64,000 nucleotides of DNA from an uncultured Spirochaetales bacterium (GTDB lineage Bacteria > Myxococcota_A > UBA9160 > UBA6930), in NCBI GenBank assembly GCA_964615365.1, contig CAZTOU010000016.1, positions 28,277 through 92,276 on the forward strand. The letters are read 5' to 3'. Positions 3,805-41,710 of the stretch are shown here, in pieces; the first letter of the stretch is position 1; every line of letters starts with the position of its first letter. The position numbers were made by a program, and so were the translations under genes. The notes beneath the pieces were generated by a model, which was not told the origin of the DNA, made no database searches, and was given only the letters and a program-made list of their open reading frames with translations.

Positions 3805-4491
3805 CTAGAGGCCGAAGAGGCGGGTCAGCTCCGGCGGGGAGTGAACGATGTAATCCGCGCCGGCGTGACGAAGCTCGGGGACGCTTCCGATCCCCCAGCT
3901 CACCCCCACCGTCACCAGCCGCATCGCACTGCCCGCCAGGACGTCGAAGTGACGATCCCCCACCATCGCACCGGGGCTAGGGGAGCCGGAGGAGGGGATC
4001 TCGAGTCCCAGGGCCTCCATGGCCCGCTCCAGCGTCTGTGTCTTGCTTTCCTGACGGCCCGAGTCCAGCGGTGGACCGACGATCAGGGCGAAGCAGTCGG
4101 CGATCCCGAGCTTCTCGAGGATCGGCCGGGCAAAGGCATCCGGCTTGGAAGTGACGACGGCGAGGAGGCGGTGCTCCTTGAGCCGCTGCACCGCCTCCTC
4201 GATGCCCGGCATCAGGGTCGTCTCGTCGAGGCAGGTCTCGCGATAGCGCTCGCGGTAGCTCTCGACGCAGGCTTCGGCCAGCCCCGGATCCAACGCCTCC
4301 GACTCGAGGATCTCCCGAAAGGCCTGGAGGAGAGGCGGGCCGATCGAGGAACGCAGGCTCTCTTCGGGCCGGGGCGCCAGCCCCTGTCGTTCCAGGGCGA
4401 AGTTGATCGAACGCGGGATGGCGATGCTGGAATCCACCAGCACGCCGTCGAGATCGAAGAAGACCGTACGGATTTCACCTAGGTCGGACAC
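3805..4491 (-). CDS. HAD-superfamily phosphatase (phosphoglycolate phosphatase-like)
   Basis: 228-aa ORF with HAD motif I 'FFDLDGVLVDS', motif II 'VVTSKP' and a C-terminal 'VGDRHFDV'. Confidence 0.8.
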   Translation of the reverse strand: MSDLGEIRTVFFDLDGVLVDSSIAIPRSINFALERQGLAPRPEESLRSSIGPPLLQAFREILESEALDPGLAEACVESYRERYRETCLDETTLMPGIEEAVQRLKEHRLLAVVTSKPDAFARPILEKLGIADCFALIVGPPLDSGRQESKTQTLERAMEALGLEIPSSGSPSPGAMVGDRHFDVLAGSAMRLVTVGVSWGIGSVPELRHAGADYIVHSPPELTRLFGL

Positions 4492-4547
4492 GGATTTGCC
4501 GGCTTTCGCATTGACACGGCCACCGCGGACACGGTAGCAACCGGAAC

Positions 4548-5732
4548 GTGGAGGAACGGGGCTTCACGACCACGGGACGGCCCGAACTGCGGAGGCGTCC
4601 CGAGAGGCGCAGCCTCCGAGCCGACGAGGACTTCCAGAGCCTCCTCGCCGTCGCCGTGCAACGTCTCGCCGCAGCGACCGGCGCGGACCGCACCGCTGCC
4701 TGGAGCCGCGGTGAAAACGGCGCGCCGGTGGTTCGAGCCGCTCAGATGATCGGCTCTGCGCTGCTTCTCCCCGAAGAGTGGGAGTACGCGGCGGTCGCCT
4801 CCCTCTCCGAGGCGAGCGACCTCGGAAAGATCGGGCTCCACCGGATCGTCGAACGGCACGGGTTCACGGCGGCGGCTCCGGTTGCGGGAGGAGAGGAGGG
4901 CACCGCGGCGGTGCTCCTGCTGGGCGAAGAAGACGCGCTCACGAAACCGGTGAGGCCGCGGATCCTCGCCGAGCTGGGGGCGGCGGCGCGGCGGCTGCGG
5001 GGTCCGGCGACTGCGGCCCTGGCGGCGGGGGGTCTCGCCCGGCTGGATGCAGAGGTCCGCCGGCTGGACCGACTGGCCGCACTCGGCGGCCTGGTCGCGG
5101 AGATCGTCCACGAGATCCGCAACCCCCTGGTCTCGGTGAAGACCTTTCTCCAGCTTCTCCCGGAACGGGAGGCGGATCCGGAGTTCCGCGAGGGCTTCCT
5201 CGAGGTGGCGTCGGAGGAGGTGCGCCGCATCGAGCGGCTCCTGGATGCGGTGCTCCAGCACGGGCGGCCGGCGTCGCCGCGTCGCGTCGAGGCCACCAGC
5301 TCGGCCACCGATGCCTTCGAATCGGTGTCACAGCTGGTCGGCTACCGGGCGACGGAACGCGGCGTGCGCCTCGAGATCGACGCCGAAGGGGACCTTCCCG
5401 AAATCCACCTCGTCGCCGACTCGCTGCGGCAGGTGGTGCTGAACCTCTGCCTCAACGCCATCGACGCGACGCCGCCCGGCGGTTGCGTCCGCCTGCGGGC
5501 GAATCGCTCGGAGGGTCACGTGGTGATCCACGTCGAAGACGAGGGTCCGGGGATCCCGACGGAGCTCGCGACGAGGATCTTCGAGCCCTTCGTCTCGACC
5601 AAGGAGGACCGACCCGGCGGGCTGGGCCTCGCCATCACCCGGCGCATCGTCGAGGAGGCCGAGGGGACGATCGAGGTCGCGGAGCGCCCCTCGGGAGGCT
5701 CCGCCTTCACGCTTCGGCTGCGCGCGGTTTAG
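4548..5732 (+). CDS. Sensor histidine kinase (GAF-like N-terminus, HisKA + HATPase_c); no adjacent response regulator
   Basis: 394-aa ORF with H-box 'VHEIRNPL', N-box 'VVLNLCLNAIDA', G1 'DEGPGI' and G2 'GGLGLAI'. GTG start. A TTGACA hexamer lies at 4511-4516 upstream. Confidence 0.85.
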   Translation: MEERGFTTTGRPELRRRPERRSLRADEDFQSLLAVAVQRLAAATGADRTAAWSRGENGAPVVRAAQMIGSALLLPEEWEYAAVASLSEASDLGKIGLHRIVERHGFTAAAPVAGGEEGTAAVLLLGEEDALTKPVRPRILAELGAAARRLRGPATAALAAGGLARLDAEVRRLDRLAALGGLVAEIVHEIRNPLVSVKTFLQLLPEREADPEFREGFLEVASEEVRRIERLLDAVLQHGRPASPRRVEATSSATDAFESVSQLVGYRATERGVRLEIDAEGDLPEIHLVADSLRQVVLNLCLNAIDATPPGGCVRLRANRSEGHVVIHVEDEGPGIPTELATRIFEPFVSTKEDRPGGLGLAITRRIVEEAEGTIEVAERPSGGSAFTLRLRAV

Positions 5733-14496: not shown

Positions 14497-15744
14497 TCAG
14501 GTCTTGGGGACCGGCTCGGTCGGCTCCTCGTTGCTGCGCGAGAGATCACGCAGCACCCGCTGAGTTCGCGCGATGGCGGCGCGCTGCACGCGCAGCTCCT
14601 CGGTCTGGGCCGCCACCTGCCGCGAGAGACGGTCGCTCACATCGACCACCTCCTCCAGGCGTTGCTCCAAGCGGGAGAACCGCTCTTCGGCCTCCGGGCT
14701 CGCGCCGGAACCCGGAGAGGGCTCGACGGCTGGCGGGGCTTCCGGAGCCTCTTCCGGAGCCGTCACCGGCGATTCGCCCTGCGCCTCCTCCGACGGCTCG
14801 GTCGCCTCCTCCGGCTCATCGAAGAGCGAGGCCTCCCCGACGACCTCACCCTCCGCGGCCGCGTCGCCCACCTCCTCCTCATCGGGCTGCGCTGCGGCCT
14901 CGGACTGCTCGTCGACGGAGAAGGGCTCCCCCGCGGCGAAGGGCGTGATCGGCTCCTCCGCCCCCGCAGCGCCTCGGTGGCGCATGATGACGAAGGCGAG
15001 AACGAAGGCGAGGACCAGGGCGAGCACGGCGCCGAGAACGAGCGGCTGGTTGAGCGGAGCGGGCAGCCCGTCCAGAGTGCCCTTCTCCGCCGCCGGAGAC
15101 GGAGGGACGGCGACGCGCGCCGGCGGCCTCGCGCGCTGCGGCGGTGTGGGCGCCGGCGTCCTCACCTCTTCCTCGACGTCCACCACCGCTCCCGGATCCG
15201 GCTCCGGGACAGCGGTGGGGGCGGCTGCTTCCACCCCTCCCGCATCGGTCTCCTCGGCGGCGGGCGCCGCCGGTTCGGGGGTCGCTTCCGCCGCGGGCTC
15301 GGGGCTCGGAGCCGGCGGAGCGGGGGCCTCCGGCGTCGCCGCGGTCTCGGGCGCCGCACGCAGGTCCAGAACCACGCGATCCGGCTCGCGGAGGACGAGC
15401 TTCTTCACCTCCACCGGACCACGTAGGGCGATGTGAATCCGGCTGGAGCCGGCATCGGCGGACTTCACCCGCACCCACCGGAGGTGCGCGCTCCTCGCCG
15501 AAGCGACCATCTTCTCGCCACTTCCGGCGGCGAGGCGAAGAACCAGCTCCTCGCTTCCGGAAGACTCGATCTCGCAGGAAACTGCGGCGTCGCTCTCCAG
15601 GACGACGCGGGTGTACTCGTCGTGCACTCCGATCCGCACGTCGACCAGGTTCGCAGCGCTCCCTGGAAGAGCCGCGAGAAACACGACTGCGGCTCCGAGA
15701 ATGAAGAAAAGCCCTCTCGATTTCTGCACGGTGGACTGGCTCAC
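14497..15744 (-). CDS. AMIN-domain bitopic membrane protein with Pro/Ala/Glu-rich regions and a C-terminal coiled coil
   Basis: GTG 15744 overlaps the upstream stop as GTGA. Signal/anchor 'GLFFILGAAVVFLAALPG'. AMIN-like 'VDVRIGVHDEYTRVVLE...VVLDL'. A central TM helix 'LVLGAVLALVLAFVLAFVIM' is followed by an acidic tail. Confidence 0.6.
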   Translation of the reverse strand: MSQSTVQKSRGLFFILGAAVVFLAALPGSAANLVDVRIGVHDEYTRVVLESDAAVSCEIESSGSEELVLRLAAGSGEKMVASARSAHLRWVRVKSADAGSSRIHIALRGPVEVKKLVLREPDRVVLDLRAAPETAATPEAPAPPAPSPEPAAEATPEPAAPAAEETDAGGVEAAAPTAVPEPDPGAVVDVEEEVRTPAPTPPQRARPPARVAVPPSPAAEKGTLDGLPAPLNQPLVLGAVLALVLAFVLAFVIMRHRGAAGAEEPITPFAAGEPFSVDEQSEAAAQPDEEEVGDAAAEGEVVGEASLFDEPEEATEPSEEAQGESPVTAPEEAPEAPPAVEPSPGSGASPEAEERFSRLEQRLEEVVDVSDRLSRQVAAQTEELRVQRAAIARTQRVLRDLSRSNEEPTEPVPKT

Positions 15745-16538
15745 CGGCGCACCCCCCTGTCCTGCCCGCCAGCGGCCGCTCCCGCGAACAGTCCGCAGAG
15801 AGTTTCGATGGCCTGCAGGATGCGCGGACCGTACCACGACACGAGCGTACCGTCGATCAGATGGATCTCGCCGGTGTGGGCTGCGGGGATGTCGAGCGCG
15901 CCAAGCTCCTGAGCATCCCTCTGTCCGAAGGCATACGGCTCGTCGGGCAGCAGGACGAGCTCCGGCCGGGCTGCTTCGATCTCCGCCTGCGTCACGCGCG
16001 GATAGCGCCGCTGGCTCACACCGGCGAAGACGTTCTCTCCACCGCATAGTGTGAGGAGATCGTGAGCGTAGGTGTCGTCGCCGACGACCATCCACGGATC
16101 CCGCCAGATCGGGCAGGTGACCCGAACCCGTCGCTCGGAACGCTCTCCCTCGGCCCGCTCGAGCGCGGCCGAGGCCGGATCCACCACCGCGCGCCGGCTC
16201 TCCTCGGATGCGCCCAGGTCGGCCAGCGCGCCCAGCAGCGCGACCGCATCGCGAACCGTTCGCGGGTGGGTCACCCACACCGGGATCCCGGCGGACTCCA
16301 GGCGCTCCACGTCGCGACGCCGGTTCTCTTCGCGGTTGGCGATGACCAGATCCGGGCGCAGCGCGATGATGGAGGGGACGTCGGGGTTCTTGGTGCCCCC
16401 GATCTTCGGGAGAGGAGCCACTCCCTCGGCGGGATGCACGCACCACTCCGTCACCCCGACCACCCGCTCGCCCAGTCCCAGCGCAAAGAGCGCCTCGGTC
16501 AAGCTCGGAACCAGCGAGACGATCCGCTGCGGCGTCAC
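15741..16538 (-). CDS. BtuF/TroA-like (Peripla_BP_2 class) binding protein without a signal peptide
   Basis: 'RIVSLVPSLTEALFALGLGERVVGVT' and 'RPDLVIAN' are typical of cobalamin/siderophore-binding proteins. GTG 16538 overlaps the ArsA-like stop as GTGA. The rest of track ORF 15741..18482 is an Arg-rich shadow over the ATPase genes. Confidence 0.75.
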   Translation of the reverse strand: MTPQRIVSLVPSLTEALFALGLGERVVGVTEWCVHPAEGVAPLPKIGGTKNPDVPSIIALRPDLVIANREENRRRDVERLESAGIPVWVTHPRTVRDAVALLGALADLGASEESRRAVVDPASAALERAEGERSERRVRVTCPIWRDPWMVVGDDTYAHDLLTLCGGENVFAGVSQRRYPRVTQAEIEAARPELVLLPDEPYAFGQRDAQELGALDIPAAHTGEIHLIDGTLVSWYGPRILQAIETLCGLFAGAAAGGQDRGVRR

Positions 16539-17692
16539 CCGAAGTCGACCTCCAGCACGCCTTCGCGCAGCCGCGCCCGGCGAATCGGGAGACCCCGGAC
16601 GGAGGCGGGGAGGGCGATCCACCGCGAGGCGTTCCGCACCTGCACGACGAGATCCGAGCCCCGAGTGACCACCTCGATCTCCTCCTTCGAGACGCCGGGG
16701 AGATCGACCTCGAGGCGGGTGCGTCCCGCATGCTTCCGCAGGCGGATCGGCCGGCCGTGCGTGAACACGGCGGCGGGATCGCGATCCCCGAAGACGTCCC
16801 GGGCCAGACGGGAGAGATCCTCGATGCCGCACAGCTCGTGGGGATAGAGGGGCGCCCGGAACTGCGGGATGGGAAAGGAGGCTTCGATCGAATCCAGCTC
16901 GCCGCGTTCGCGCTCGGCCCAGCGCGCCAGAAAGCCGCCGGCGGCCTCCTCCGGGAGCAGCCGGTTGACCACCACTGCATCGGTCGCGACGCCGTAGAGA
17001 CTCAGATAGGCGAAGGAGCGACGCGTCTCCTCCACCACCACGCGGGCCGGATTCACCACCAGCCGCGCCGTGGTCCGATCGCCGTCCAGGAGGATATGAC
17101 GCACGTCCTCCACGTCGGAGTAGAGTCGCTCGATGGCCTCGAAGAACTCGTCCCGGGGAATCACGCCGGTGGCGTGAATCCGCTCCACCAGGGGGCGCAG
17201 CAGTCGAGCACCCCGACGCTCCAGGTCGAAGAAGTTCTCCATGAAGATGCGCAGGGCGTCCGGAAAGCGGAGCATGCGCAGCGTCGCGCCGGTGGGTGCG
17301 CAGTCGACCACGCAGACGTCGAAGTCGCCGGTCTCTTCGACCTCTCGAATCGCCCGCAGGGCCACCAGCTCCTCGAGGCCCGGAAACACCAGGAGCTCCT
17401 CGGCGAGGACCTCGTCGGTCTCGTCCCGCAAGAGCTCCCGGAGCCAGCGCTGGATCTCCGCCCAGGAGCGATCCAGCTCGTCGAGGACGGCCACCTCCCG
17501 GGCCACCACGCCCTCGGTGAGGGACATGGGACGCGCTCCGACCCGCTGCCCCAGCGCGTCGCCCAGGCTGTGCGCGGGATCCGCCGAGAGCAGGAAGACG
17601 CGGTGGCCGTGGGCGGCCGCACCCAGGGCCGTCGCGATGGCGTGGCTGGTCTTGCCGACACCCCCCTTCCCGGTCAGGAGAATGACCCGCAC
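16535..17692 (-). CDS. ArsA/Get3-family ATPase with C-terminal HSP20-like domain (paralog 2)
   Basis: 'RVILLTGKGGVGKTS' deviant Walker A, 'SADPAHSL' and 'VVDCAPTG'. C-terminal beta-sandwich-like 'DLVVQVRN...GVLEVDF'. The GTG start immediately follows the upstream TAG. Confidence 0.85.
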   Translation of the reverse strand: MRVILLTGKGGVGKTSHAIATALGAAAHGHRVFLLSADPAHSLGDALGQRVGARPMSLTEGVVAREVAVLDELDRSWAEIQRWLRELLRDETDEVLAEELLVFPGLEELVALRAIREVEETGDFDVCVVDCAPTGATLRMLRFPDALRIFMENFFDLERRGARLLRPLVERIHATGVIPRDEFFEAIERLYSDVEDVRHILLDGDRTTARLVVNPARVVVEETRRSFAYLSLYGVATDAVVVNRLLPEEAAGGFLARWAERERGELDSIEASFPIPQFRAPLYPHELCGIEDLSRLARDVFGDRDPAAVFTHGRPIRLRKHAGRTRLEVDLPGVSKEEIEVVTRGSDLVVQVRNASRWIALPASVRGLPIRRARLREGVLEVDFG

Positions 17693-28722: not shown

Positions 28723-29089
28723 CGCCAACTTCGGTAAGCCAATCGCAAGATCAGGGAACTGGTCCGTGCGCCGTACACTTCATACGATCACCGACGAGCC
28801 GAGCTGTGTGGCGATCTACAAGAATCGCTTCGAGATCCGGAGTTCGAGGAGTTCATCTCCTCAAGGCGGCTGAGAGCGCGGATTCGGATGACCTCCGGGA
28901 CCCTCATCGAGGAAGACCTCGATCTCGACGGTGCGAAGGAAGTGCGCGGCGAGTTCCTGCGTTCGCCGTGCGGTGAGCCGCCGAGAGGCGGGCACGTTGG
29001 GCATGGGCTGCGGGCTGGGGTTCGAGCTCGGCGCGATCCTCCCGGTGCTGCTCTGGCTCCATCAGCGGCGGAGGCGTCTCGCCGTGTGA
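28723..29089 (+). pseudogene. Decayed paralog of the 19270-19781 gene (no start or signal peptide, 138-nt internal deletion, frame breaks) ending in a GCGL...RRRR tail
   Basis: It aligns at the DNA level with 19346-19459 and 19598-19745. It begins 20 nt after the dsbA-like stop. The last 33 codons (28991-29089) read 'GTLGMGCGLGFELGAILPVLLWLHQRRRRLAV*'. Confidence 0.5.
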
Positions 29090-29201: not shown

Positions 29202-30230
29202 ATGCAGAAGGGACTGATCCTGACCACCGGCATGGCTCGAGGCGACGTGGATCTGGCGGTGCGCGCCGAGGCGGCGGGCTTCGATTCCGTCTTCACCATC
29301 GAGTTCTTCAATCGGCACGGCTACGTACCCCTGGGCGCCATCGCACAGGCGACCCGGCGCATCCGCTTCGGGACGGGGATCGCCAATGCCTTTACCCGCA
29401 GCCCTCTCCTCCACGCCAGCGCGGCGATGGATCTCGACGAGCTCTCCGGGGGGCGGATGATTCTCGGGCTGGGAAGCGCCACGAGGCGCATGAACCAGAA
29501 CTGGTTCGGCGTCCCCTTCTCGGAGCCGGCCGCCCGCATGCGGGAGCTGGTCACGCTGCTTCGCCAGGCAATCGCCGCGCAGAGCGGCCTCGGCTTTCGC
29601 TTCGAGGGCCGCTTCTGGAACTTGAGCGTCCCGATCTACTCGCGGCCCGGTGCCGCGCGAACCGAAATTCCGATCTGGGTCGCCGCCGTCAACCGGGGCA
29701 TGATCGCCGCGGCGGGCGCCGTCGCCGACGCCCTGGTCGGCCACCCGATCGCGACCCGGCGCTGGCATCGCGAGGTCACCCTCCCCGGCCTGCGAAGCGC
29801 GGAGGAGAAAGCGGGCCGGGAATCCGGCGCCTGCAAGCTCGCGCCCTACGTTCTGACCTCCATCTCCGACGATCGCGATCAGGCCGTGCGCGACGCGAAG
29901 GGGCAGATCGGCTTCTACCTCACCACCGAGCTCTACCACTCGATACTCGACCTCCACGGGTTGCGCGAGGTCGGCCAGGCCTGCCGAGCGGCGCTTAGAA
30001 GCTTCGACCTCGCCGCCATGGCCGACGCCATCCCGGACCCGCTCGTCGAGGAGATCGCCATCGCCTGCACCCCGGACGAAGCGCGCGACCGCCTCGCCCA
30101 ATGGAACGATCTCACCGAGGAGCCCCTCTTCTACGCTCCCACCGTCGGGGTCGAGCCGGAACGGGTGGCCGCGAACCTCGACGCGATCCTGGATCTATTC
30201 GGCAGCCGCTCGGACGCGCCTTCGCCATAG
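29202..30230 (+). CDS. LLM-class F420/flavin-dependent oxidoreductase
   Basis: 'AEAAGFDSVFTIEFF', 'RIRFGTGIANAFTRSP' and 'RMILGLGSA' are typical of luciferase-like monooxygenases. In-frame ATGs at 29193 and 29202. A TAGAAT hexamer at 29189-29194. Confidence 0.8.
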   Translation: MQKGLILTTGMARGDVDLAVRAEAAGFDSVFTIEFFNRHGYVPLGAIAQATRRIRFGTGIANAFTRSPLLHASAAMDLDELSGGRMILGLGSATRRMNQNWFGVPFSEPAARMRELVTLLRQAIAAQSGLGFRFEGRFWNLSVPIYSRPGAARTEIPIWVAAVNRGMIAAAGAVADALVGHPIATRRWHREVTLPGLRSAEEKAGRESGACKLAPYVLTSISDDRDQAVRDAKGQIGFYLTTELYHSILDLHGLREVGQACRAALRSFDLAAMADAIPDPLVEEIAIACTPDEARDRLAQWNDLTEEPLFYAPTVGVEPERVAANLDAILDLFGSRSDAPSP

Positions 30231-30968
30231 CCACATCAGCGGCGGCAGGACGAACAGCAGCTCGGAGCTCAGGCCGCAGCCGTAGAAAGCCCCCTCCTGG
30301 TTCTTCCAGGGCTGTCCGACGCACTGCGGGTCCGGGTTCGCCACGCCGTCTCCGTCGGGATCGCTGACGTTGGCGGGGCAACCTCCGGGCTCGCCCGTGC
30401 AGATTCCCCAGATCGACTGTCCGCCGTCGAAGTCGATCAGCCCCGGATCCGGATCCGATCCCGGATCGTTGTTGATCCCGTCCTGGCACTCGGGCGCCTC
30501 GAGGGGCGCAAGGTGGTCGCCGCATCCGGGATCGTCCGGGTAGTCGACCCAGCCGTCGGAGTCGTTGTCGAGGCGGTCGTCGCACGGGTACGCCGGGTAC
30601 TCCGGCCCGAACTGGAGGATTTGCAGGCCGGCGGATCCCCGGGCGACGTAGGCGAGCTCCCCGACCACCTCGACACCCCTGCCCCAGTCCGCGGGGATGA
30701 ACCCGATCTCGACCGGAGCTGCGGGGTTCGAGAGGTCGATGATCCGAACGCCACTGGGGTTTGTGTGGACGACGTAGGCGAGCCCGCCGGCGATCTCGAC
30801 GTCCAAGACGAAGCCCGGCGTGTCGAGGGCTCCGACGTTGATCAGCGCTGCGGCGCGCTCACCTGCGACGAGCCAGAAGACGATCGCCAGGGCAACGAGG
30901 AGGATTCCCGCGGTCTGAACCCTGTTCACCAGGAGTGTGTCAAGGTGTCGCGAACCGAGCGGAGTCAT
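30195..30968 (-). CDS. Secreted LVIVD-repeat / TSP3-like Asp-rich protein with a C-terminal GCGL-TM-RRR tail
   Basis: 257-aa ORF with a signal anchor. LVIVD-like 'GGLAYVVHTNPSGVRIIDLSNPAAP' and 'GELAYVARGSAGLQILQF'. Ca-binding-like 'DNDSDGWVDYPDD' and 'DPDGDGVANPD'. The tail is 'YGCGLSSELLFVLPPLMWLWRRRVRAAAE*'. GGAGGTG upstream of the ATG. Confidence 0.7.
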   Translation of the reverse strand: MTPLGSRHLDTLLVNRVQTAGILLVALAIVFWLVAGERAAALINVGALDTPGFVLDVEIAGGLAYVVHTNPSGVRIIDLSNPAAPVEIGFIPADWGRGVEVVGELAYVARGSAGLQILQFGPEYPAYPCDDRLDNDSDGWVDYPDDPGCGDHLAPLEAPECQDGINNDPGSDPDPGLIDFDGGQSIWGICTGEPGGCPANVSDPDGDGVANPDPQCVGQPWKNQEGAFYGCGLSSELLFVLPPLMWLWRRRVRAAAE

Positions 30969-35363: not shown

Positions 35364-35858
35364 ATGAGCCGTCGATACAGCGGTCCGCCGCTGACCACCG
35401 AGCAGGTGCTGGAGCGATACAGCTCGGGCCCCAAGAGCGGGTTGTTCACCGACGGCTCCTGTGAGGGGAACCCGGGCCCCGGCGGCTGGGGCTTCGTCTG
35501 GGTCGAGAACGACGAGATCGTGCAGGAGCGGTGCGGCAGCGATGCCGACACCACCAACAATCGCATGGAGCTCACCGCCCTGATCGAGGCGCTCCGCGTC
35601 CTTCCCGAGGACGCCGAGATCACCGTCTACTCGGACAGCCAGCTCTGCGTGAAGACGGTGAACGAGTGGGCAGCGGGCTGGGAGAAGCGCGGCTGGAAGC
35701 GCAAGAGCGGACCGATCGCCAACCTGGAGCGGGTGAAGCGGTTCTACGAGCTGGCCCGAGCCCATCCGCGGGTTCGCATCGAGTGGATCAGGGCCCACGA
35801 CGGCTCGCGCTGGAACGAGTACGCGGACGCCCTGGCGTCCCGTCATCTAATCGGGTAG
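35364..35858 (+). CDS. rnhA: Ribonuclease HI
   Basis: 164-aa ORF with 'TDGSCEGNPGPGGWGF', 'TNNRMELTALIEAL', 'VYSDSQ' and 'NEYADALA'. Confidence 0.9.
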   Translation: MSRRYSGPPLTTEQVLERYSSGPKSGLFTDGSCEGNPGPGGWGFVWVENDEIVQERCGSDADTTNNRMELTALIEALRVLPEDAEITVYSDSQLCVKTVNEWAAGWEKRGWKRKSGPIANLERVKRFYELARAHPRVRIEWIRAHDGSRWNEYADALASRHLIG

Positions 35859-36722
35859 CGAGGCCGGCTCCTCCGGGATGGCGCAGCTCACCGGGAGGTC
35901 GGCGAGCGCCGCAGCGAAGAGCTCTCGGTTCTTTTCGCCCAGATCGTCGCGCAGCAGCACCTCGCAAACCTCTCCCGAGGCGATACGCTGCACGTCGACC
36001 GCGACCGCCCAGAGGAAGAGCGCCGCCAGACCGGCGGCGACCCACCGCATCCAGCGCGGAGAGGGGCCCAGGGGAATCGGCCCCGCACCGCGGGAGACGA
36101 GGGCCATCGCGGCCATTCCACCGGCGAAGCCGCCGAAGTGCGCAGACCAGGCGATTTTGAAGGGGAGCACGACAGCCAGGAGTGCATCCCCGACCAGAGC
36201 GATGGGGATGACCCACCTTACCCGGCGCAGCAGGGGCGTCAGGGACCTCTTCTGTCGCAGCACCAGTGTCCCCCAAGCCCCGAGCATTCCGAAGATCGCC
36301 CCGGAGGCTCCCACCACCACAGTTCCTCCCGGCGGCACGGCGACGGTGGCGAGCGAGCCGGCGAGCATCGAGAGAGCGATGACCAGCAGTGTCCTCAGGC
36401 TCCCGACCTGTGCCTCCAGCGCTGCACCCAATCCCAGCAAGCCCGCCAGATTCATCGTGAAGTGGATATCGTCCGCGTGCAGGAGAGGGGCGGTGAAGAT
36501 GCGGAAGACCTCCCCCTCCCGTACCAACTCCGGGTCGAGGCCACCGACCAGGTACGCCGAGTGGCCGGTGCCGTCCTCGGTGAGCGCGTTCGCCCACCAA
36601 AGGGCCGCGAAGACCAGCGAGAGCAGTGCGGCGAAGCTGAGGGTCGTGGTAGCGCCATGGTACTGAACACCGTCGGGGCCCGTCGTCCAGAAGCTCGGGC
36701 GGAGCCGGTCACCTTCGCTCAT
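35847..36722 (-). CDS. Rhomboid-family intramembrane serine protease, translationally coupled to the RHS gene
   Basis: 291 aa from ATG 36722, which overlaps the RHS stop as ATGA. 'RIFTAPLLHADDIHFTMNL', catalytic 'GASGAIFG' and 'HFGGFAGG'. There is an extra C-terminal TM helix and a tail. Confidence 0.8.
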   Translation of the reverse strand: MSEGDRLRPSFWTTGPDGVQYHGATTTLSFAALLSLVFAALWWANALTEDGTGHSAYLVGGLDPELVREGEVFRIFTAPLLHADDIHFTMNLAGLLGLGAALEAQVGSLRTLLVIALSMLAGSLATVAVPPGGTVVVGASGAIFGMLGAWGTLVLRQKRSLTPLLRRVRWVIPIALVGDALLAVVLPFKIAWSAHFGGFAGGMAAMALVSRGAGPIPLGPSPRWMRWVAAGLAALFLWAVAVDVQRIASGEVCEVLLRDDLGEKNRELFAAALADLPVSCAIPEEPASLPD

Positions 36723-39700
36723 CGGTGTCGCCTCCACCGGCGCGCGGCCCATCTGCGGATCAGCAGAGGGGCGAGCAGAAGCTGCGCCGCAATCAAGAAC
36801 CAGTGCAGATGTCCGAGGCCTGGGACCGAGGCGAGCCGCACCGGCGAGCAGCTCCCCGAGCTGGAGGACGTGGGTACGCTGGGGATGGATGCGAGGGCGG
36901 TTGAGCTGTCCGAGGTGAGTGCGCGACCCAGCGTCAAGGAGAAGCCGAGACCTGTCACCCCGAAGGCTGCCGCTGCCACCGCGGCGGCCAACGCCGTGGT
37001 GACGAAGAAGAGAGCGATGGCCGCCAAGATCAGGCCGAGGGCGGCGGCGCCCACCGCCACGACGGCCTCGGCATTTCGCCCATCCGGATCCGCGAACCAC
37101 ACAGGATTGCCCAGCGCATAGGCGTACTGGTTGACGTACTGGAGCACCGGATCCGGGGACAGGAAGCGGCCCACGGCGGGATCGTAGACCCTCGCGCCCA
37201 GAACCATCAACTCGCCGATCTGGGTGCGGCCCGCGAAGCGCACGAAGTCGTCGTCGGTGCCGATCACCTGGCGCAGCCCGTAGGCATCGTACTCGTAGTG
37301 GCTGTGGACCTCGCCGTCCTGGTCGCTCACGAACTTGACGTTGCCGCGGAAGTCCAGGTGGCGGTAGCGACGCTCGCCCGTGGCGAACTCCACGCGAACC
37401 TCTCCGAGATCGATCGCGCTGGGAATGCCCGCCGGGTCCGCCTGCACCCGCCCGCCGAAGAGCCAGCGGCTCTCCACCTCCATCACCACGGAGCGCACCC
37501 TGCGGTCCAGCGCGTCCCACTCGAAGAGGACGTCGCTCCCATAGGAGGCCAGCCGACCGGATGCGGTCCAGGTGAGGGGGACCCCCCGGCGCGAGGTGGC
37601 GAATCCCGCCTCGTCGTAGCTGTAGTCGATGGTTCCCGCCGCGAGAGTCGTCGCCGAGAGCAGGCGATTGCTCTCCGCGTTGTAGGTGAAGCTCTCGCCG
37701 AGGGCGGTCGACCCCAGGCCGTTGCTGAGCGCGTCGTACTCGTATGCACTGTGCAGGGTCTCACCGATCCAGAAGTAGACGCGCTGGCCGGCCACCGGCT
37801 CCTGGCCCGGCGTCCCGAATCCGGGTCCCAGCATGTACTCCTCGCTGGTGGTGGCGGCGACAGCTCCGAAGGTCGTGGTGAGGGCGGTGGCATGTAGCCC
37901 CGGCGCGAACGCCATCGGCCCCTCCCATGTGATCTCGGTCTCCTCCACCACCCCACCGGGACCCTCGGTCGTGGAGCCTTCCAGCTGGCCGTTCGACGGG
38001 TCGTAGCGGTAGAGCCGCACCAGACCGTTTCCATGGCTCGTCAGGGCGAGCTTCCCGTCCTGGTAGACGTGCTGGACCAGGAGGTGACCGTTGTCCGAGA
38101 GGCTCACCCGCCGATCGGCGAGATCGTATCCGTGATCGAACCAGCGGAGGAGCAAGTCGCTCGCCAGGACCTCGCGGGTCGTTCGGGAGCGCAGGTCGTG
38201 GGTCAGCAGCAGGATCTCTCCGTCCGGATACTCGACCTGTACGACTCGGTCCGCAGTGTCGTACGAGTAGAGCTCGACCCCACCGCGTACCGAGTCTTCG
38301 AGGCTTCGAAGCCGTCCCTCTGCGTAGCCCATGACCGCCGCGGACTCGATTGCGCCGTCGCGGAGATTGCGGATCGACACGACCCGACCCACCGCGTCGT
38401 AGTCGGCCTCCCGCCGCATCCCGTTGGCCAGCTCGGTCGCGGTGACACGCCCGGCGGCGTCGTACTCGAGGGTCGTCGAAGCCCAGGCGCCGTCCACCCT
38501 CTCGCGGATCCGTGCCAGGCGGCCCAGGGAGTCGTAGTCGAACTCGTCATCGCCTCCACCGGGACGCGCGATCCGCGTGCGCAGGCCGTCGCTGCGGTGT
38601 TCGATCTCGATGTACTGATCGGGATGCCGCGGGATGCCCCCGTAGGCCGCATCCGCCACCCGGATGCGACGGAGATTGCGGTCCTCGTCGTATTCGCGGG
38701 AGACGACCCCACCGAGCTCGGGAGTCACGCCGTGGATGCCCCGGAGCAGGTTGCCCACCAGATCGTACTCGTTCTCGATCTCGAGTTCGTCGGTGGTCAG
38801 CAGGGTCGGGTGACCGTGGGCGCCGTGGCCGTCGTACTCGACCACTCCGTTCGCGGTGGTGAAGGAGGCGACGGTCTGGTCGGACGCGTAGCTGTAGCTC
38901 GCCACGACCTCTCCCTCACCGTTCTCCACCGCCACCAGTCGGCCGGATCCGTCGTAGCTGCGCCGCTCTCGCAGGCCGATGCTGTCGACGATCTCGAGCG
39001 GGGCTCGCTCCAGGAGGGCCTCGCGATTCACCGCGGCGGCGGCATAGCTGAAGCTGACCACGTTGCCGGATGGCTGGATCTCGATGGCGACGTCGTCGTC
39101 TTGATGGCTCCAGCGGGTCGTCGCGCCACTCGGCTGGGTCTCCTCGCCGACCCGGAGTCCGTCCCAGGAGAGGTACAGCGCCTCCTCCACGTCCGTCGAT
39201 TCCCGCTCGCGGAGACGGCGCTCCCCGTCGTAGCGAAACCAGGTCACGTGGCCGAGCGGATCGATGTGCCGGGTCGCGAAGAGCCCGGCCTCGTTCTTGA
39301 CGTAGTAGTCGAACCGGTGGACCGGATGCTCCTCTCCGATCGCCCGTACCTCTCGTACGCGACGACCCCCGTAGAGGTACTCGACGCGCTCTCCCTCCGA
39401 GCTGACGATCGCACTGAGGTCGATCCCCGAGTACTCGTATCGGGTGCCCGGCCATCCGCGTGCGGTGTCGAGCCCGTCGCGAATCCCCGTCAGGCGATCG
39501 GCCGAGTAGAGGATCTCCGCGACTCGGCCGGCGCGATCGCTGATCGAGGCGACCTGCCCGTCCGGTCCATAGGAAATCTCGAAGACCGGCTCGCAGTCCC
39601 CGGAACCCATGCACTGATCGATCGCGACGGTTCGCGGCGCTCCCGCCACGATCCCTTGCAGGTAGGAGAGGCGCGGATAATCCGCGCTCGCGTAATGGAC

Positions 39701-40165
39701 GGCGCTGAGTCGGGAATCCGGGGCGAAATCGTAGGCGAGCCCTCCCTTGGTCTTTACGGTGTCGGCGTCGACGACCACCCAGACGGTTCCGGGAATCGCG
39801 TCTCCGTGCGCGAGGGCCCTGGTGTCATGGGAGGCGCCGGTCGGATCGACGAAGAGGGCCCCGTCGTAGCGGACGTCGAAGCTCCAGAGCCACCCCCGGG
39901 AGGCGGAGTTGTAGGCGGCACCGATCTCGCGGGTTCCGAGATGCGTGTCGATGCTGAGAACCGAACGTCGGACCAGCAGGTTTCCACCCAGGGGATTGAC
40001 GACTGCACCGGGAACCTCCAGCACGGCGCGCTCCTGGTACTGGGGCAAGCCGGCCGCCGGCGCCAGCTTCTTGGCCCTCGGCGGACAGCCCAGCGCCGCG
40101 ATCAAGGCGATCGACAGCACGGCGATCGCGCGATTCATCGGACTTGCGGAGTGCGGATTCCTCAT
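36719..40165 (-). CDS. RHS/YD-repeat protein with signal/lipobox-like N-terminus and an atypical hydrophobic, Cys-containing C-terminal tip
   Basis: 1148-aa ORF. N-terminus 'AIAVLSIALIAALGC'. Many YD repeats ('YDAAGRVTATE', 'YDAVGRVVSI', 'YDSLGRLARI'). The RHS core ends 'GRFLSPDP...GNPVWFADPDGR'. The 118-aa tip contains TM segments, an 'SSSSGSCSP' stretch and 'WFLIAAQLLLAPLLIRRWAARRWRRHR*'. GGAGAGGG upstream of ATG 40165. Confidence 0.9.
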   Translation of the reverse strand: MRNPHSASPMNRAIAVLSIALIAALGCPPRAKKLAPAAGLPQYQERAVLEVPGAVVNPLGGNLLVRRSVLSIDTHLGTREIGAAYNSASRGWLWSFDVRYDGALFVDPTGASHDTRALAHGDAIPGTVWVVVDADTVKTKGGLAYDFAPDSRLSAVHYASADYPRLSYLQGIVAGAPRTVAIDQCMGSGDCEPVFEISYGPDGQVASISDRAGRVAEILYSADRLTGIRDGLDTARGWPGTRYEYSGIDLSAIVSSEGERVEYLYGGRRVREVRAIGEEHPVHRFDYYVKNEAGLFATRHIDPLGHVTWFRYDGERRLRERESTDVEEALYLSWDGLRVGEETQPSGATTRWSHQDDDVAIEIQPSGNVVSFSYAAAAVNREALLERAPLEIVDSIGLRERRSYDGSGRLVAVENGEGEVVASYSYASDQTVASFTTANGVVEYDGHGAHGHPTLLTTDELEIENEYDLVGNLLRGIHGVTPELGGVVSREYDEDRNLRRIRVADAAYGGIPRHPDQYIEIEHRSDGLRTRIARPGGGDDEFDYDSLGRLARIRERVDGAWASTTLEYDAAGRVTATELANGMRREADYDAVGRVVSIRNLRDGAIESAAVMGYAEGRLRSLEDSVRGGVELYSYDTADRVVQVEYPDGEILLLTHDLRSRTTREVLASDLLLRWFDHGYDLADRRVSLSDNGHLLVQHVYQDGKLALTSHGNGLVRLYRYDPSNGQLEGSTTEGPGGVVEETEITWEGPMAFAPGLHATALTTTFGAVAATTSEEYMLGPGFGTPGQEPVAGQRVYFWIGETLHSAYEYDALSNGLGSTALGESFTYNAESNRLLSATTLAAGTIDYSYDEAGFATSRRGVPLTWTASGRLASYGSDVLFEWDALDRRVRSVVMEVESRWLFGGRVQADPAGIPSAIDLGEVRVEFATGERRYRHLDFRGNVKFVSDQDGEVHSHYEYDAYGLRQVIGTDDDFVRFAGRTQIGELMVLGARVYDPAVGRFLSPDPVLQYVNQYAYALGNPVWFADPDGRNAEAVVAVGAAALGLILAAIALFFVTTALAAAVAAAAFGVTGLGFSLTLGRALTSDSSTALASIPSVPTSSSSGSCSPVRLASVPGLGHLHWFLIAAQLLLAPLLIRRWAARRWRRHR

Positions 40166-40237
40166 TGGCCCTCTCCTGATTGTCGAAGGATCGGGGTGAG
40201 AAAGCGGGGACCGTCACATCGCGAGCGGGAGTGCAGA

Positions 40238-40855
40238 TCACCCATGCAGCGCACCCCCCGCGGATTCCCAGACCGAACGGAGATTCAGCCCCGCGTGCAG
40301 TCCGATGCACGCGGCTACCGTCCGGGAGACGCGGCGAAGGAGCGCCAGCAGCATTCCGACCAGGAAGCTCCCGAGCATCGGCCACGGTGTGAGATGGGTG
40401 ATCGCGAACAGCGCGCTGGTGAGAAGCGCCGCACCGCCCGTTCCCACCGGTGTCGCCGCGATGGCGTCGAAGAGGCGCTCGCGATAGAGCAGCTCCTCGA
40501 AGACCGGCGCGGCCAACACCACCGCGAACAGAAGGGAAAGGCCGGGAGCGGGCGAAGGGGCCAGCAGGCTCGGATCGAGCCCCAGCGCGAGGCCGGCCAG
40601 AGCGATCGCGCCGCAGAGGGAGGGATGGGCGGCGAATCCGAGCGCGCCCGCCAAGCCGAAGAGGACCGCGTGGCGCAGCCGAGGCCGCACCCGGAACGGA
40701 CGGCGCGTCGCGATCAGAAAGGCCGCGGCGAGGCTCATGACCACGAGCACCGCGGGCTCTTCGCCGACCCGCGAAGAGAGCCGGGATCCGCTCACCAGGA
40801 TCGTCCAGACCGCCAGCATCGCCAGAAGCGCGCGGAGCAACGGATCGTTCCTCAT
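40238..40855 (-). CDS. CPBP-family (CAAX/Abi-type) intramembrane glutamic endopeptidase
   Basis: Motifs 'EELLYR' (EExxxR), 'FAITH' (FxxxH) and 'HAGLN' (HxxxN) in a polytopic ORF. ATG 40855 overlaps the upstream stop as ATGA; the track ORF starts at 40870. Confidence 0.8.
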   Translation of the reverse strand: MRNDPLLRALLAMLAVWTILVSGSRLSSRVGEEPAVLVVMSLAAAFLIATRRPFRVRPRLRHAVLFGLAGALGFAAHPSLCGAIALAGLALGLDPSLLAPSPAPGLSLLFAVVLAAPVFEELLYRERLFDAIAATPVGTGGAALLTSALFAITHLTPWPMLGSFLVGMLLALLRRVSRTVAACIGLHAGLNLRSVWESAGGALHG

Positions 40856-41571
40856 CGCAAACCGACCCATGAGCGGGGGCGGGGGGGCCTAGATGCGGCC
40901 GCGGCCATCGCGGATCCGATCGCGACCCAGCCCATCCCCAGCACCTCCGGCGCGATCAGGGGTTCGCCAAGGGGAGACGGCGCGCGGAATGGCTCGATCG
41001 CCAGACGCATCGCCCCGAAACCATAGAGTGTCGCCGATCCGACCCATGCCCGCGGAAGGCGCCGCGTCCACGCGGCGAGGCCCAGGAGCCCCGCGATCTC
41101 GTAGAGCCGGGTCGGATGGTCTCCAAACCAACCCGCAGCCCCGTGACAGCATCCGGAGGCGATGCAGCCGAGTCGCGCCACCGCGAAGGCGTGGGGCAGG
41201 CTCCCCAGCGCCGCTCCGAGGTACCGCTCCCGCGCGACCCGCCCCCGCGGCAAGAGGGCGATGACCCCCAGAGGCGCGAACAGCACGCTGTGGCCGGCCG
41301 CGGGACGCAGCAGCGCCCGCGGATCCGCCGCCACGTCGTCGAGATGAAGTAGCGCCCAGCCGAGGTGCGCCGCCGCTGCCGCCAGGACCAGGCCGGCGAC
41401 GAAGCGAACCCCGCTCTCCGCCGGCCCTCCCCGGTGGAGGTAGTCGAAGACCGCCATCCAGAACGCGCCGCCGAGTGCGACCATGCGCCCGACCTCGGCC
41501 AGGGGTGGGTGCAGGTGGGCCGCGAACGCTGCGCTCGACGCCAGGGCCCAAAGCACGGTGCGGGCGCCCAT
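40852..41571 (-). CDS. Prolipoprotein diacylglyceryl transferase (Lgt) family protein, Cys-rich loop variant
   Basis: 239-aa polytopic ORF. 'ARLGCIASGCCHG' aligns with Lgt 'GRLGNFINGELWG', 'HPTRLYE' with 'HPSQLYE', and 'YGFGAMRLAIEPFR' with 'YGAFRIIVEFFR'. Confidence 0.7.
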   Translation of the reverse strand: MGARTVLWALASSAAFAAHLHPPLAEVGRMVALGGAFWMAVFDYLHRGGPAESGVRFVAGLVLAAAAAHLGWALLHLDDVAADPRALLRPAAGHSVLFAPLGVIALLPRGRVARERYLGAALGSLPHAFAVARLGCIASGCCHGAAGWFGDHPTRLYEIAGLLGLAAWTRRLPRAWVGSATLYGFGAMRLAIEPFRAPSPLGEPLIAPEVLGMGWVAIGSAMAAAASRPPRPRSWVGLR

Positions 41572-41710
41572 TGTTCCTTCCAGCGCGGGACCGGCGGATC
41601 GACTTCGGCCACTATATGCCGAGACGGGTCCTTGGGAAGACGGTTTGGCCGGCCGACTCCGGACGCCACCGCACGTCGCCGGACGACCGCGTAGGCATTA
41701 GACTGGCTCC

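Follow-up and report, generated by a model that had tools for sequence, protein, structure and literature searches.

The 64,000-nt stretch of DNA considered here (contig CAZTOU010000016.1, positions 28,277 to 92,276, from an uncultured bacterium assigned to Myxococcota_A; in the following called the window) contains four consecutive minus-strand genes, which encode an Lgt-like membrane protein, a CPBP-type intramembrane protease, an RHS protein and a rhomboid protease. It is very probable that these genes form one unit directed at the C-terminal tail of the RHS protein, as had been claimed in an original prediction made from this sequence: the linkage of the genes, their fusions in relatives, the conservation of the tail and the co-variation of the enzymes with tail type all agree in this respect. 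That the unit represents a single-client, CAAX-like system of C-terminal lipidation and cleavage, lipid transfer by the Lgt-like protein included, is favoured with slight confidence. A wider claim is put forward tentatively, namely that the Lgt-like protein, marked by an RLGC-x3-GCC motif, is the first C-terminal Cys lipid transferase of bacteria and that it constitutes, together with an Rce1-type protease and (in relatives) a further membrane protein X and the rhomboid, a periplasmic counterpart of eukaryotic CAAX processing, which may leave the RHS cocoon or a released hydrophobic peptide anchored by a lipid.

The positions of the four open reading frames (ORFs) agree with those originally predicted. 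The Lgt-like gene (40852-41571, coding for 239 amino acids) is followed by the genes for the CPBP protease (40238-40855, 205 amino acids), the RHS protein (36719-40165, 1148 amino acids) and the rhomboid (35847-36722, 291 amino acids). As read directly from the sequence, the stop codon of the Lgt-like gene and the start codon of the CPBP gene share an ATGA (gcgATGAgg at 40855-40852), as do those of the RHS and rhomboid genes (ccgATGAgc at 36722-36719), and the 72-nt gap between the CPBP and RHS genes (40166-40237, minus strand) carries a Shine-Dalgarno sequence, GGAGAGGG, at 40176-40169, which ends 3 nt ahead of the RHS ATG; the two overlaps and the short gap were thus correctly described. A candidate sigma-70-like promoter recognized by consensus match only (TTCCCA-16-TATAGT at 41611-41638, minus strand) is located about 40 nt upstream of the Lgt-like gene and is the sole promoter-like match between 35300 and 42000, where 0.2 are expected, and terminator-like matches inside the four-gene unit show no excess over the expectation from shuffled sequence. 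As judged from this organization, the four genes are regarded as one operon.

The RHS protein matches the RHS_repeat (81.2 bits) and Rhs_assc_core (60.2 bits) models, with the core at residues 959-1029, and its orthologues form one family of about 1150-1250 residues. Its AlphaFold2 (AF2) model, calculated with 75 orthologues, shows a closed YD/RHS cocoon of residues ~30-1031 with predicted local distance difference test (pLDDT) values >90. The top match of this shell in Foldseek is RhsA of the type VI secretion system (T6SS) (7Q97, E=1e-42), and 8QJA, 9IFO, teneurins and 4O9X are also found; the closest solved folds are therefore those of T6SS Rhs effectors, a teneurin-like protein, teneurins and TcB-TcC. 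The two aspartates of the autoprotease are conserved in the 75 orthologues, D995 being nearly invariant and D1026, the first residue of a DPDG motif, invariant, and together with the repeats, the core and the predicted closed shell they identify the protein as an RHS/YD-repeat cocoon. Self-cleavage is possible rather than assured, because the residue after DPxG varies (R in the window protein, L in 14 of 69 orthologues). At its N-terminus, the protein carries a signal peptide with a lipobox-like ...IAALG-C27 (LGC at 25), in which C27 is nearly invariant among the 75 orthologues, bearing out the Sec/lipobox-like N-terminus that had been noticed before. Past residue 1029, no domain was found with Pfam or NCBIfam, and the C-terminus consists of transmembrane (TM)-like helices, a linker and the tail. 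Lacking a toxin domain and a delivery system, and surrounded by housekeeping genes, the protein does not qualify as an Rhs polymorphic toxin effector.

A hydrophobic, Ala/Gly/Leu-rich segment follows directly after the DPDG motif in 67 of 69 orthologues, comprising 70-156 residues, among which one to three stretches are TM-like. As delimited by orthologue comparison and AF2, it covers residues 1030-1095 of the window protein (36881-37078, minus strand) and is hypervariable, sharing 33% identity with the orthologue at locus L005, compared with 80-90% for shell and core and 75% for the tail. AF2 predicts helices at 1032-1052 and 1058-1084 with low confidence and a tail helix at 1120-1147 with moderate confidence, and packs no part of this C-terminal membrane region into the shell. 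A Ser/Gly-rich linker joins the hydrophobic segment to the tail, which is designated type 1 and extends from C1106 to R1148 (36722-36850, minus strand; delimited by the orthologue logo and AF2). It consists of C-S-P (1106), a 13-residue spacer (VRLASVPGLGHLH), a TM helix (WFLIAAQLLLAPLLI) and an Arg cluster (RRWAARRWRRHR), and the last ~60 residues of the protein read …SSSSGSCSPVRLAS…RRHR. Among the matches listed, 88 of 120 RHS orthologues end with such a tail of ~41 residues, whose pattern is [G/S]-C-[S/A]-P, a spacer with L+5 and P+9, a TM helix L-L-P-L-Q-L-L-L-[A/G] and an Arg cluster. In the logo of the 88 orthologues, Cys and P+2 show no variation and Q+22 is conserved, and C1106 and P1108 are likewise invariant in the set of 75. 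The invariant Cys, the TM helix and the Arg cluster are the features of a client of myxosortase-type systems; the Cys is separated from the uncharged run by a median of 13 residues and does not abut it in the manner of a myxosortase-type signature. Across all loci fetched, the type-1 tail is seen on RHS proteins only, the other matches to its pattern being off-frame ORFs and two RHS C-termini that are cut off.

Two further kinds of ending occur on the same RHS family. Type 2 reads C-G-L-x-G-x-E, followed by a TM helix and Arg residues, while type 3 consists of C-x-C and a Gly-rich stretch leading to GGGFGGW or GGFGGF, without TM helix or Arg cluster, and is present in roughly 17 of the 120 RHS orthologues listed, e.g., at L117 (10001-13534, P0346) and L118 (10001-13501, P0348). 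A tail of similar kind is also encoded elsewhere in the window, on an LVIVD-repeat protein of 257 amino acids (30195-30968, minus strand) which ends with ...YGCGLSSELLFVLPPLMWLWRRRVRAAAE and shows a Cys tail C-G-L-x-x-x-E, a TM helix and Arg, with no spacer; the same tail type is found on the RHS orthologues P0326, P0337, P0353, P0362 and P0389. A small ORF between a DsbA-like and a luciferase-like gene (28931-29089, plus strand) ends with GMGCGLGFELGAILPVLLWLHQRRRRLAV, again a type-2 Cys tail; it may code for a mini-protein, or be what remains of a client gene that was lost. The 64-kb window contains only one CPBP and one rhomboid gene. The curated NCBIfam sorting-domain models gave no match at E<=10 for four type-1 tails or for two type-2 queries from the window (the full 257-amino acid protein and its last 45 residues), although the filters of HMMER may hide very weak matches.

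Gene neighbourhoods were compared from three independent anchors, the Lgt-like, CPBP and RHS genes. Of the species-representative loci retrieved with the Lgt-like anchor, 16 span 12 kb or more; among these, orthologous CPBP genes are present in 11, orthologous RHS genes in 11 and rhomboid genes in 6, and the Lgt-like gene stands alone in 4. The CPBP anchor yielded 80 metagenome loci, most of them short; the 31 with at least 4 kb include 18 with an Lgt-like gene, 9 with an RHS gene and 14 with a gene for protein X. The order of the genes differs between lineages, being Lgt-CPBP-RHS-rhomboid in the window clade, Lgt-CPBP-X-RHS-rhomboid at L008, CPBP-x-RHS-x-Lgt at L010 and Lgt-RHS-CPBP at L023 and L036, while the type-1 loci found from the RHS anchor read RHS-CPBP-X-Lgt (L123), RHS-X-Lgt (L122) and RHS-rhomboid only (L121). 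The flanking genes are not common between the lineages carrying the Lgt-like/CPBP/RHS set. We estimate the probability that such genes lie within 10 kb of each other by chance at <1% per locus for a genome of 5-10 Mb, and the recurrence of the gene set in numerous contexts unrelated to each other places the arrangement far outside what chance would produce. The neighbourhood comparison thus supports a unit of Lgt-like, CPBP and RHS genes that co-occur in differing contexts and orders. The rhomboid was also claimed as a part of the coupled unit, which agrees with its position in the window and with RHS-rhomboid adjacency at L008, L016-18, L028, L030, L038 and L121; as a fixed member it does not stand, being encoded at only 6 of the 16 long species loci.

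In addition, the Lgt-like and CPBP domains occur as physical fusions. Both are detected by Pfam in one polypeptide in 9 of 10 long family members scanned, in either order: P0070, P0106, P0132 and P0152 represent CPBP-Lgt fusions, and P0080, P0166, P0171, P0188 and P0193 Lgt-CPBP fusions. Two further fusions are recognized by motif (P0177, P0190), another one is encoded in frame at L035 in a short-read assembly, and the fused clusters P0171 and P0132 each occur on several contigs. An apparent Lgt-CPBP fusion at L018 was discarded as a frameshift artefact, because the C-terminal helix of its Lgt part is translated in the wrong frame, and in this long-read metagenome-assembled genome (MAG) the RHS gene is also split.

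The link to the tail itself becomes apparent from loci whose RHS proteins end differently. At the four type-2/type-3 loci L117-L120, none of the genes for the Lgt-like protein, CPBP, X or rhomboid is found within 10 kb, as judged from Pfam tables and our own profiles at E<=0.01 on long contigs, and all four RHS proteins keep the lipobox-like Cys at their N-terminus. One of these loci, L120, is syntenic with L010 (cobW, Exo_endo_phos, GT2 and DEAD/DUF3516 helicase genes), yet it lacks the two enzyme genes. The comparison of L120 with L010 and the other loci can be read as a natural swap experiment on tail type, and suggests that the enzymes track the type-1 tail rather than the shell or the N-terminal signal, because the loci with other tails retain the lipobox but not the enzymes. 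One possibility that would have spoken against the unit, namely Lgt-like and CPBP genes being housekeeping copies that keep their position without the RHS gene, does not apply to the window clade.

All peptide motifs quoted for the enzymes in the original prediction are present in the translated proteins, and the catalytic motifs are kept throughout in two of the three enzymes. The CPBP protease scores 59.3 bits with the Rce1-like PF02517 model (cut-off 22.4) and contains the EExxxR, FxxxH and HxxxN motifs as EELLYR (120), FAITH (150) and HAGLN (187), with E120, E121, R125, H154, H187 and N191 invariant in 12 orthologues. Among NCBIfam models, it is matched best by MrtJ, MrtS and Mrt_core, but without reaching the respective cut-offs (MrtJ 36.8/75, MrtS 32.8/130, Mrt_core 29.2/100, MrtP 20.3/250 and MrtC 19.5/195 bits), so that it does not score as a myxosortase, and its orthologues likewise remain below the Mrt cut-offs. 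The rhomboid reaches 100.4 bits with PF01694 (cut-off 22.6) and possesses the HxxxN, GxSG and TM6 His motifs as HFTMN (87), GASG (138) and AHFGG (194). Its best NCBIfam match is rhombosortase TIGR03902 at 58.7 bits, under the cut-off of 84, and the rhomboids of relatives score 38-51 bits with this model; all three window enzymes stay below the cut-offs of the named families of sorting enzymes (Mrt, rhombosortase). The rhomboids encoded at L008 (15830-17008), L030 (~15575-16687) and L121 (13455-14804) are extended at the N-terminus by ~150-200 residues, which comprise two TM helices and a soluble domain and are absent from the 291-residue window protein. Homology of the L008 extension to a two-TM protein encoded after the RHS gene at L010 was considered, and BLASTP shows no similarity between them.

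The Lgt-like protein represents the weakest family assignment of the four. It is a polytopic membrane protein with the motifs RLGCIASGCC (133), HPTRLYE (152) and RLAIEPFR (189), and its all-helical AF2 model has a pLDDT of 92.8. The Pfam LGT model (PF01790) covers its C-terminal half only, with 23.8 bits at a cut-off of 24.9, and NCBIfam models give no match. Some relatives do pass the Pfam cut-off (P0060, P0070, P0080), and the profile of 28 family members has one significant match in the PDB, E. coli Lgt (5AZB, E=1.6e-4). The protein is regarded as a homologue rather than a canonical member of the family, because it stays below the cut-off, yet relatives pass and the profile matches 5AZB; the Lgt family call of the original prediction is thus confirmed as to homology, and weakened as to strength. 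A Foldseek comparison of the AF2 model with the PDB gave nothing significant, Lgt itself included, and a phmmer search of the window ORFs with E. coli Lgt detected no canonical lgt in the 64 kb, although this is a weak test, as it missed the Lgt-like ORF as well.

In the alignment with E. coli Lgt, R133, R189, E193 and R196 correspond to R143, R239, E243 and R246, and the counterpart of HPT-x-LYE is HPSQLYE. R133, R189, R196 and EP-x-R are invariant across the family; in particular, R133 and R189 are conserved in all 28 sequences and match the catalytic arginines R143 and R239. The Lgt signature G-R-x-G-N-F-x-N-x-E-x-x-G is not preserved, the Lgt-like protein reading RLGC-IAS-GCC-HG instead (canonical GRLGNFINGELWG corresponds to ARLGCIASGCCHG): N146 is replaced by C136 and E151 by C141, while G154 is kept as G144. 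C136 and C141/C142 are near-invariant or invariant in the family, and 182 of the 209 members retrieved share R-[LV]-G-C-x3-G-C-C. The periplasmic head insertion of Lgt is missing. N146 and E151 are reported to be required or important residues in E. coli Lgt. The claim that all three membrane enzymes retain their catalytic motifs therefore holds for CPBP, for the rhomboid and for the arginines of the Lgt-like protein, and fails at its N146 and E151 positions. Because of the Cys residues at these positions and the missing head insertion, the protein is best described as a divergent, specialized Lgt paralogue or homologue and not as a canonical Lgt. The family is small, with 66 clusters at 90% identity among 5.8 billion proteins; at 50% identity, 125 clusters with E<=1e-30 and 255 with E<=1e-10 are found among 1.84 billion representatives. 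A motif scan of 185,579 species representatives recovered 21 Lgt-like loci, all from MAGs and nearly all from Myxococcota.

Our model of the pathway starts with Sec export of the RHS protein and ordinary N-terminal lipoprotein maturation at C27. Its C-terminal region, composed of a hydrophobic hairpin, the Ser/Gly-rich periplasmic linker, G-C-S-P, the 13-residue spacer, the TM helix and the Arg cluster, would then retain the RHS protein in the inner membrane, where the Arg cluster would be cytoplasmic and G-C-S-P would lie at the periplasmic side. The Lgt-like enzyme would move a lipid, most simply diacylglycerol, onto the thiol of C1106, which would be presented in the mirror topology of a normal lipobox. 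The CPBP protease would cut distal to the lipidated Cys in the fashion of Rce1 and thereby remove the spacer, the TM helix and the Arg tail, and the rhomboid may clear the released TM stub or cut another N-out TM helix. The pathway would yield an RHS cocoon, or the C-terminal fragment released from it by autoproteolysis, that is anchored by a lipid at the C-terminus. Lipid transfer, cleavage site, order of steps and rhomboid substrate are all proposed here from sequence features and from the known relatives of these enzymes.

Several observations weigh against this interpretation. The sub-cut-off Pfam score of the Lgt-like protein and the Cys residues in place of N146 and E151 would be compatible with a different chemistry or with a non-catalytic protein. 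The Cys of the tail is ~13 residues away from the TM helix, whereas the known CPBP-processed signals abut it (10.1101/2023.06.07.544157). The rhomboid is absent from about half of the systems and X from the window. CPBP-X-Lgt modules occur with no RHS gene within 10 kb at L051, L059, L060, L086-88 and L101, L121 combines RHS and rhomboid with no Lgt-like or CPBP gene nearby, and the Lgt-like gene stands alone at L027, L029, L031 and L033. Finally, the negative set of the swap comparison amounts to four loci, and many of the comparison contigs are short.

The alternative deserving most attention, although we consider it rather unlikely, retains the unit as serving the RHS tail and assigns the Lgt-like protein a role other than diacylglyceryl transfer, such as S-acylation via a thioester as in Lnt or DHHC enzymes, transfer of another lipid, or presentation of the substrate as a non-catalytic partner of CPBP. 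It would account for the replacement of N146 and E151 by Cys, the loss of the head insertion and the low Pfam score, and there is a precedent in LnsB, a CPBP-fold protein partnering an acyltransferase (PMC7387801). The invariance of R133, R189, R196 and EP-x-R is not expected of a pure scaffold, and the model proposed in the literature for Cys tails expects thioether-type lipidation before CPBP cleavage (PMC11980579).

The target of the Lgt-like and CPBP proteins might instead be the lipobox at the N-terminus of the RHS protein, the two enzymes constituting a private maturation pathway resembling Lgt/Lsp or LnsA/LnsB. The near-invariance of C27 and the nature of the known Lgt substrate, an N-terminal lipobox, would fit this idea, as would the participation of a CPBP homologue in lipoprotein N-acylation in S. 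aureus (PMC7387801). It is nevertheless quite improbable, since the four RHS orthologues with other tails keep their lipobox with neither Lgt-like nor CPBP genes within 10 kb, one of them at a syntenic locus. Every other lipoprotein is already served by the housekeeping pathway, and LnsB lacks the catalytic motifs (PMC7387801), all of which are kept in the window CPBP.

Slightly less probable still is a polymorphic-toxin cassette, in which the RHS protein would deliver a hydrophobic, membrane-active C-terminal peptide and CPBP (as an Abi-type protein), perhaps with the other membrane proteins, would confer self-immunity. Abi/CPBP proteins are known bacteriocin immunity factors, and the drop in identity after DPxG (33% compared with 80-90%) recalls the hypervariable regions of Rhs and TcC proteins; both autoprotease aspartates are also retained. 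This idea is opposed by the context, which contains no PAAR, VgrG, T6SS, Tc or two-partner secretion genes and shows the RHS gene as a single copy in a conserved housekeeping neighbourhood. The variable segment is of low complexity (Ala/Gly/Leu) and precedes a conserved tail, comparable hydrophobic segments are present in RHS orthologues that have other tails and no CPBP gene, and the Lgt-CPBP fusions would go unexplained. Fortuitous adjacency of housekeeping Lgt-like and CPBP genes to the RHS gene, suggested by the housekeeping character of the surroundings (tgt, RNase H, pyrF, clpP, msrB), is rejected, being contradicted by the recurrence of the set in unrelated contexts, in shuffled order and as fused genes, by the very small size of the Lgt-like family and by the absence of the enzyme genes from the syntenic locus whose RHS protein has another tail.

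Returning to the tail-directed unit, most relatives contain an additional gene between those for CPBP and the Lgt-like protein, which codes for the polytopic membrane protein X of 260-340 residues, e.g., at L008 (11360-12217), L051 (10665-11636), L087 (2454-3233) and L123 (14279-15304). A local profile recognizes 48 ORFs of this family, none of them in the 64-kb window. The residues H47, H108, E111, N112, H182, H216, S250 and H253 are invariant, and in cluster P0265 X is fused to a CPBP domain; X is probably a metalloenzyme of the same pathway. Neither X nor the small proteins encoded next to RHS genes match any Pfam or NCBIfam model. Among the latter, proteins with two TM helices and a soluble domain follow the RHS gene at L010 (8777-9211) and L119 (13417-13824); these appear to belong to the shell rather than to the tail machinery, because the two copies are homologous (BLASTP E=2e-10) despite the different tail types. 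L010 also encodes a secreted protein of 272 amino acids between its CPBP and RHS genes (4422-5240), the end of which (VRFVPEPRPLLVVAFGASGLVALAWKRIQP) resembles a PEP-CTERM signal. The lone Lgt-like genes at L029, L031 and L033 share another neighbourhood, with genes for ADP-forming acyl-CoA synthetase-like, ACT-domain and acyl-CoA thioesterase proteins, and their clients, if any, would be encoded elsewhere. RLGC-x3-GCC is present at L031 and L033, and the pattern search at L029 matched a different site.

The unit in the window is flanked by a divergent alpha/beta-hydrolase gene (41711, plus strand) and a convergent RNase H gene (35364-35858, plus strand), and the other genes of the window are housekeeping genes such as tgt, RNase H, pyrF, clpP and msrB, at a G+C content of 66-71%. 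The same sequence is also contained in an identical 113-kb metagenome contig, whose Pfam gene table was used to check the flanks: no T6SS, Tc or CdiB genes are present within 10 kb on either side, in agreement with the original prediction. The nearest named relatives are Myxococcota MAGs.

Invariant-Cys C-terminal sorting signals are found on dozens of surface proteins per myxobacterial genome. The model for the MYXO-CTERM signals postulates an unidentified "Lgt-like acyl-transferase" acting ahead of the CPBP myxosortase (PMC11980579; 10.1101/2023.06.07.544157), for which the housekeeping Lgt is only a guess (PMC11980579), and the myxosortase protease was demonstrated experimentally in 2025 (PMC11980579). 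The gene described here is the first dedicated candidate for the enzyme proposed to lipidate such Cys-type signals: it belongs to the Lgt family in the wider sense, is translationally coupled to the gene of a putative CPBP sorting protease, is fused to it elsewhere, and lies next to that of a single trackable client, which would reduce the question of the missing lipidation step to one tail peptide, one transferase and one protease. If true, C-terminal lipidation by the Lgt-like protein would provide an actual example of the Lgt-like step that has been postulated in MYXO-CTERM-type sorting, and so confirm it. A role of the family as the general MYXO-CTERM lipidating enzyme is unsupported, as only 21 loci occur among the 185,579 species representatives. 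X adds an uncharacterized His-rich membrane family to this machinery in relatives, and neither X nor the Lgt-like protein nor the type-1 tail has a curated model in NCBIfam.

A comparison with known systems shows the closest correspondence with those of the myxosortases, a group of CPBP sorting proteases in which MrtX, MrtC, MrtP, MrtJ, MrtS and MrtA serve the MYXO-, JDVT-, Synerg- and CGP-CTERM signals (10.1101/2023.06.07.544157; PMC11980579). Common features of the myxosortase/MYXO-CTERM system and the present one are the tripartite signal of invariant Cys, TM helix and Arg cluster, the CPBP/Rce1-type glutamic intramembrane protease and the proposed order of Cys lipidation and distal cleavage, while the MrtJ/JDVT-CTERM system resembles it in having one client encoded beside its enzyme. 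Unlike these systems, the window CPBP stays under every Mrt cut-off, the signal is of a new type, containing a 13-residue spacer and conserved P+2, L+5, P+9 and Q+22, where the signature motifs of known CPBP-processed proteins abut the TM helix with no spacer (10.1101/2023.06.07.544157), the client is an RHS cocoon, and the protease is coupled or fused to an Lgt-family protein, often accompanied by a rhomboid and X. A literature search including 10.1101/2023.06.07.544157 and PMC11980579 revealed no report of an Lgt-family partner, an RHS client, a rhomboid or X in such systems. The system thus appears to work like Cys-type C-terminal sorting, but falls outside the myxosortases by cut-offs and spacer.

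E. coli Lgt (5AZB/5AZC) is homologous to the Lgt-like protein over most of the TM core and shares R143, R239, E243, R246 and HP-x-x-LYE with it, and as in the Lgt-Lsp-Lnt pathway, the proposed substrate is a periplasmic-face Cys thiol beside a TM helix which is later removed. The Lgt-like protein differs in its length of 239 residues versus about 290, in the lack of the head insertion, in the change of GNFxNGE to GC-x3-GCC, in its near restriction to uncultured Myxococcota and in its predicted target, which is C-terminal and of inverted topology. The analogy to eukaryotic/archaeal CAAX processing (prenyltransferase, Rce1, ICMT) consists in the proposed attachment of a lipid to a near-C-terminal Cys thiol and a subsequent cut after it by an Rce1-family protease, and in the presence of a further membrane enzyme in the module, represented by X in relatives. 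In contrast to CAAX processing, the donor enzyme would be Lgt-like instead of a soluble prenyltransferase, the reaction would take place in the periplasm, no methyltransferase is identified, and about 41 residues including a TM helix would be removed instead of three. As in the rhombosortase/GlyGly-CTERM system, a rhomboid is encoded beside a client with a C-terminal TM helix and an Arg tail; the differences are the score of 58.7 versus 84 bits, the absence of a GlyGly abutting the helix, and a rhomboid that is optional and accompanied by CPBP.

The RHS protein, finally, shares the cocoon fold, both autoprotease aspartates and the hypervariable segment after DPxG with the shells of T6SS Rhs proteins, TcB-TcC and teneurins. 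It differs from them by carrying a lipoprotein signal, by lacking a PAAR or delivery domain, a toxin domain and a recognizable immunity gene, and by its C-terminus, which represents a conserved membrane-sorting tail on a single-copy protein in a stable chromosomal context. These features suggest that RHS cocoons need not be toxins made for delivery but can reside in the envelope as lipoproteins, and that one RHS shell family swaps among at least three types of C-terminal tail.

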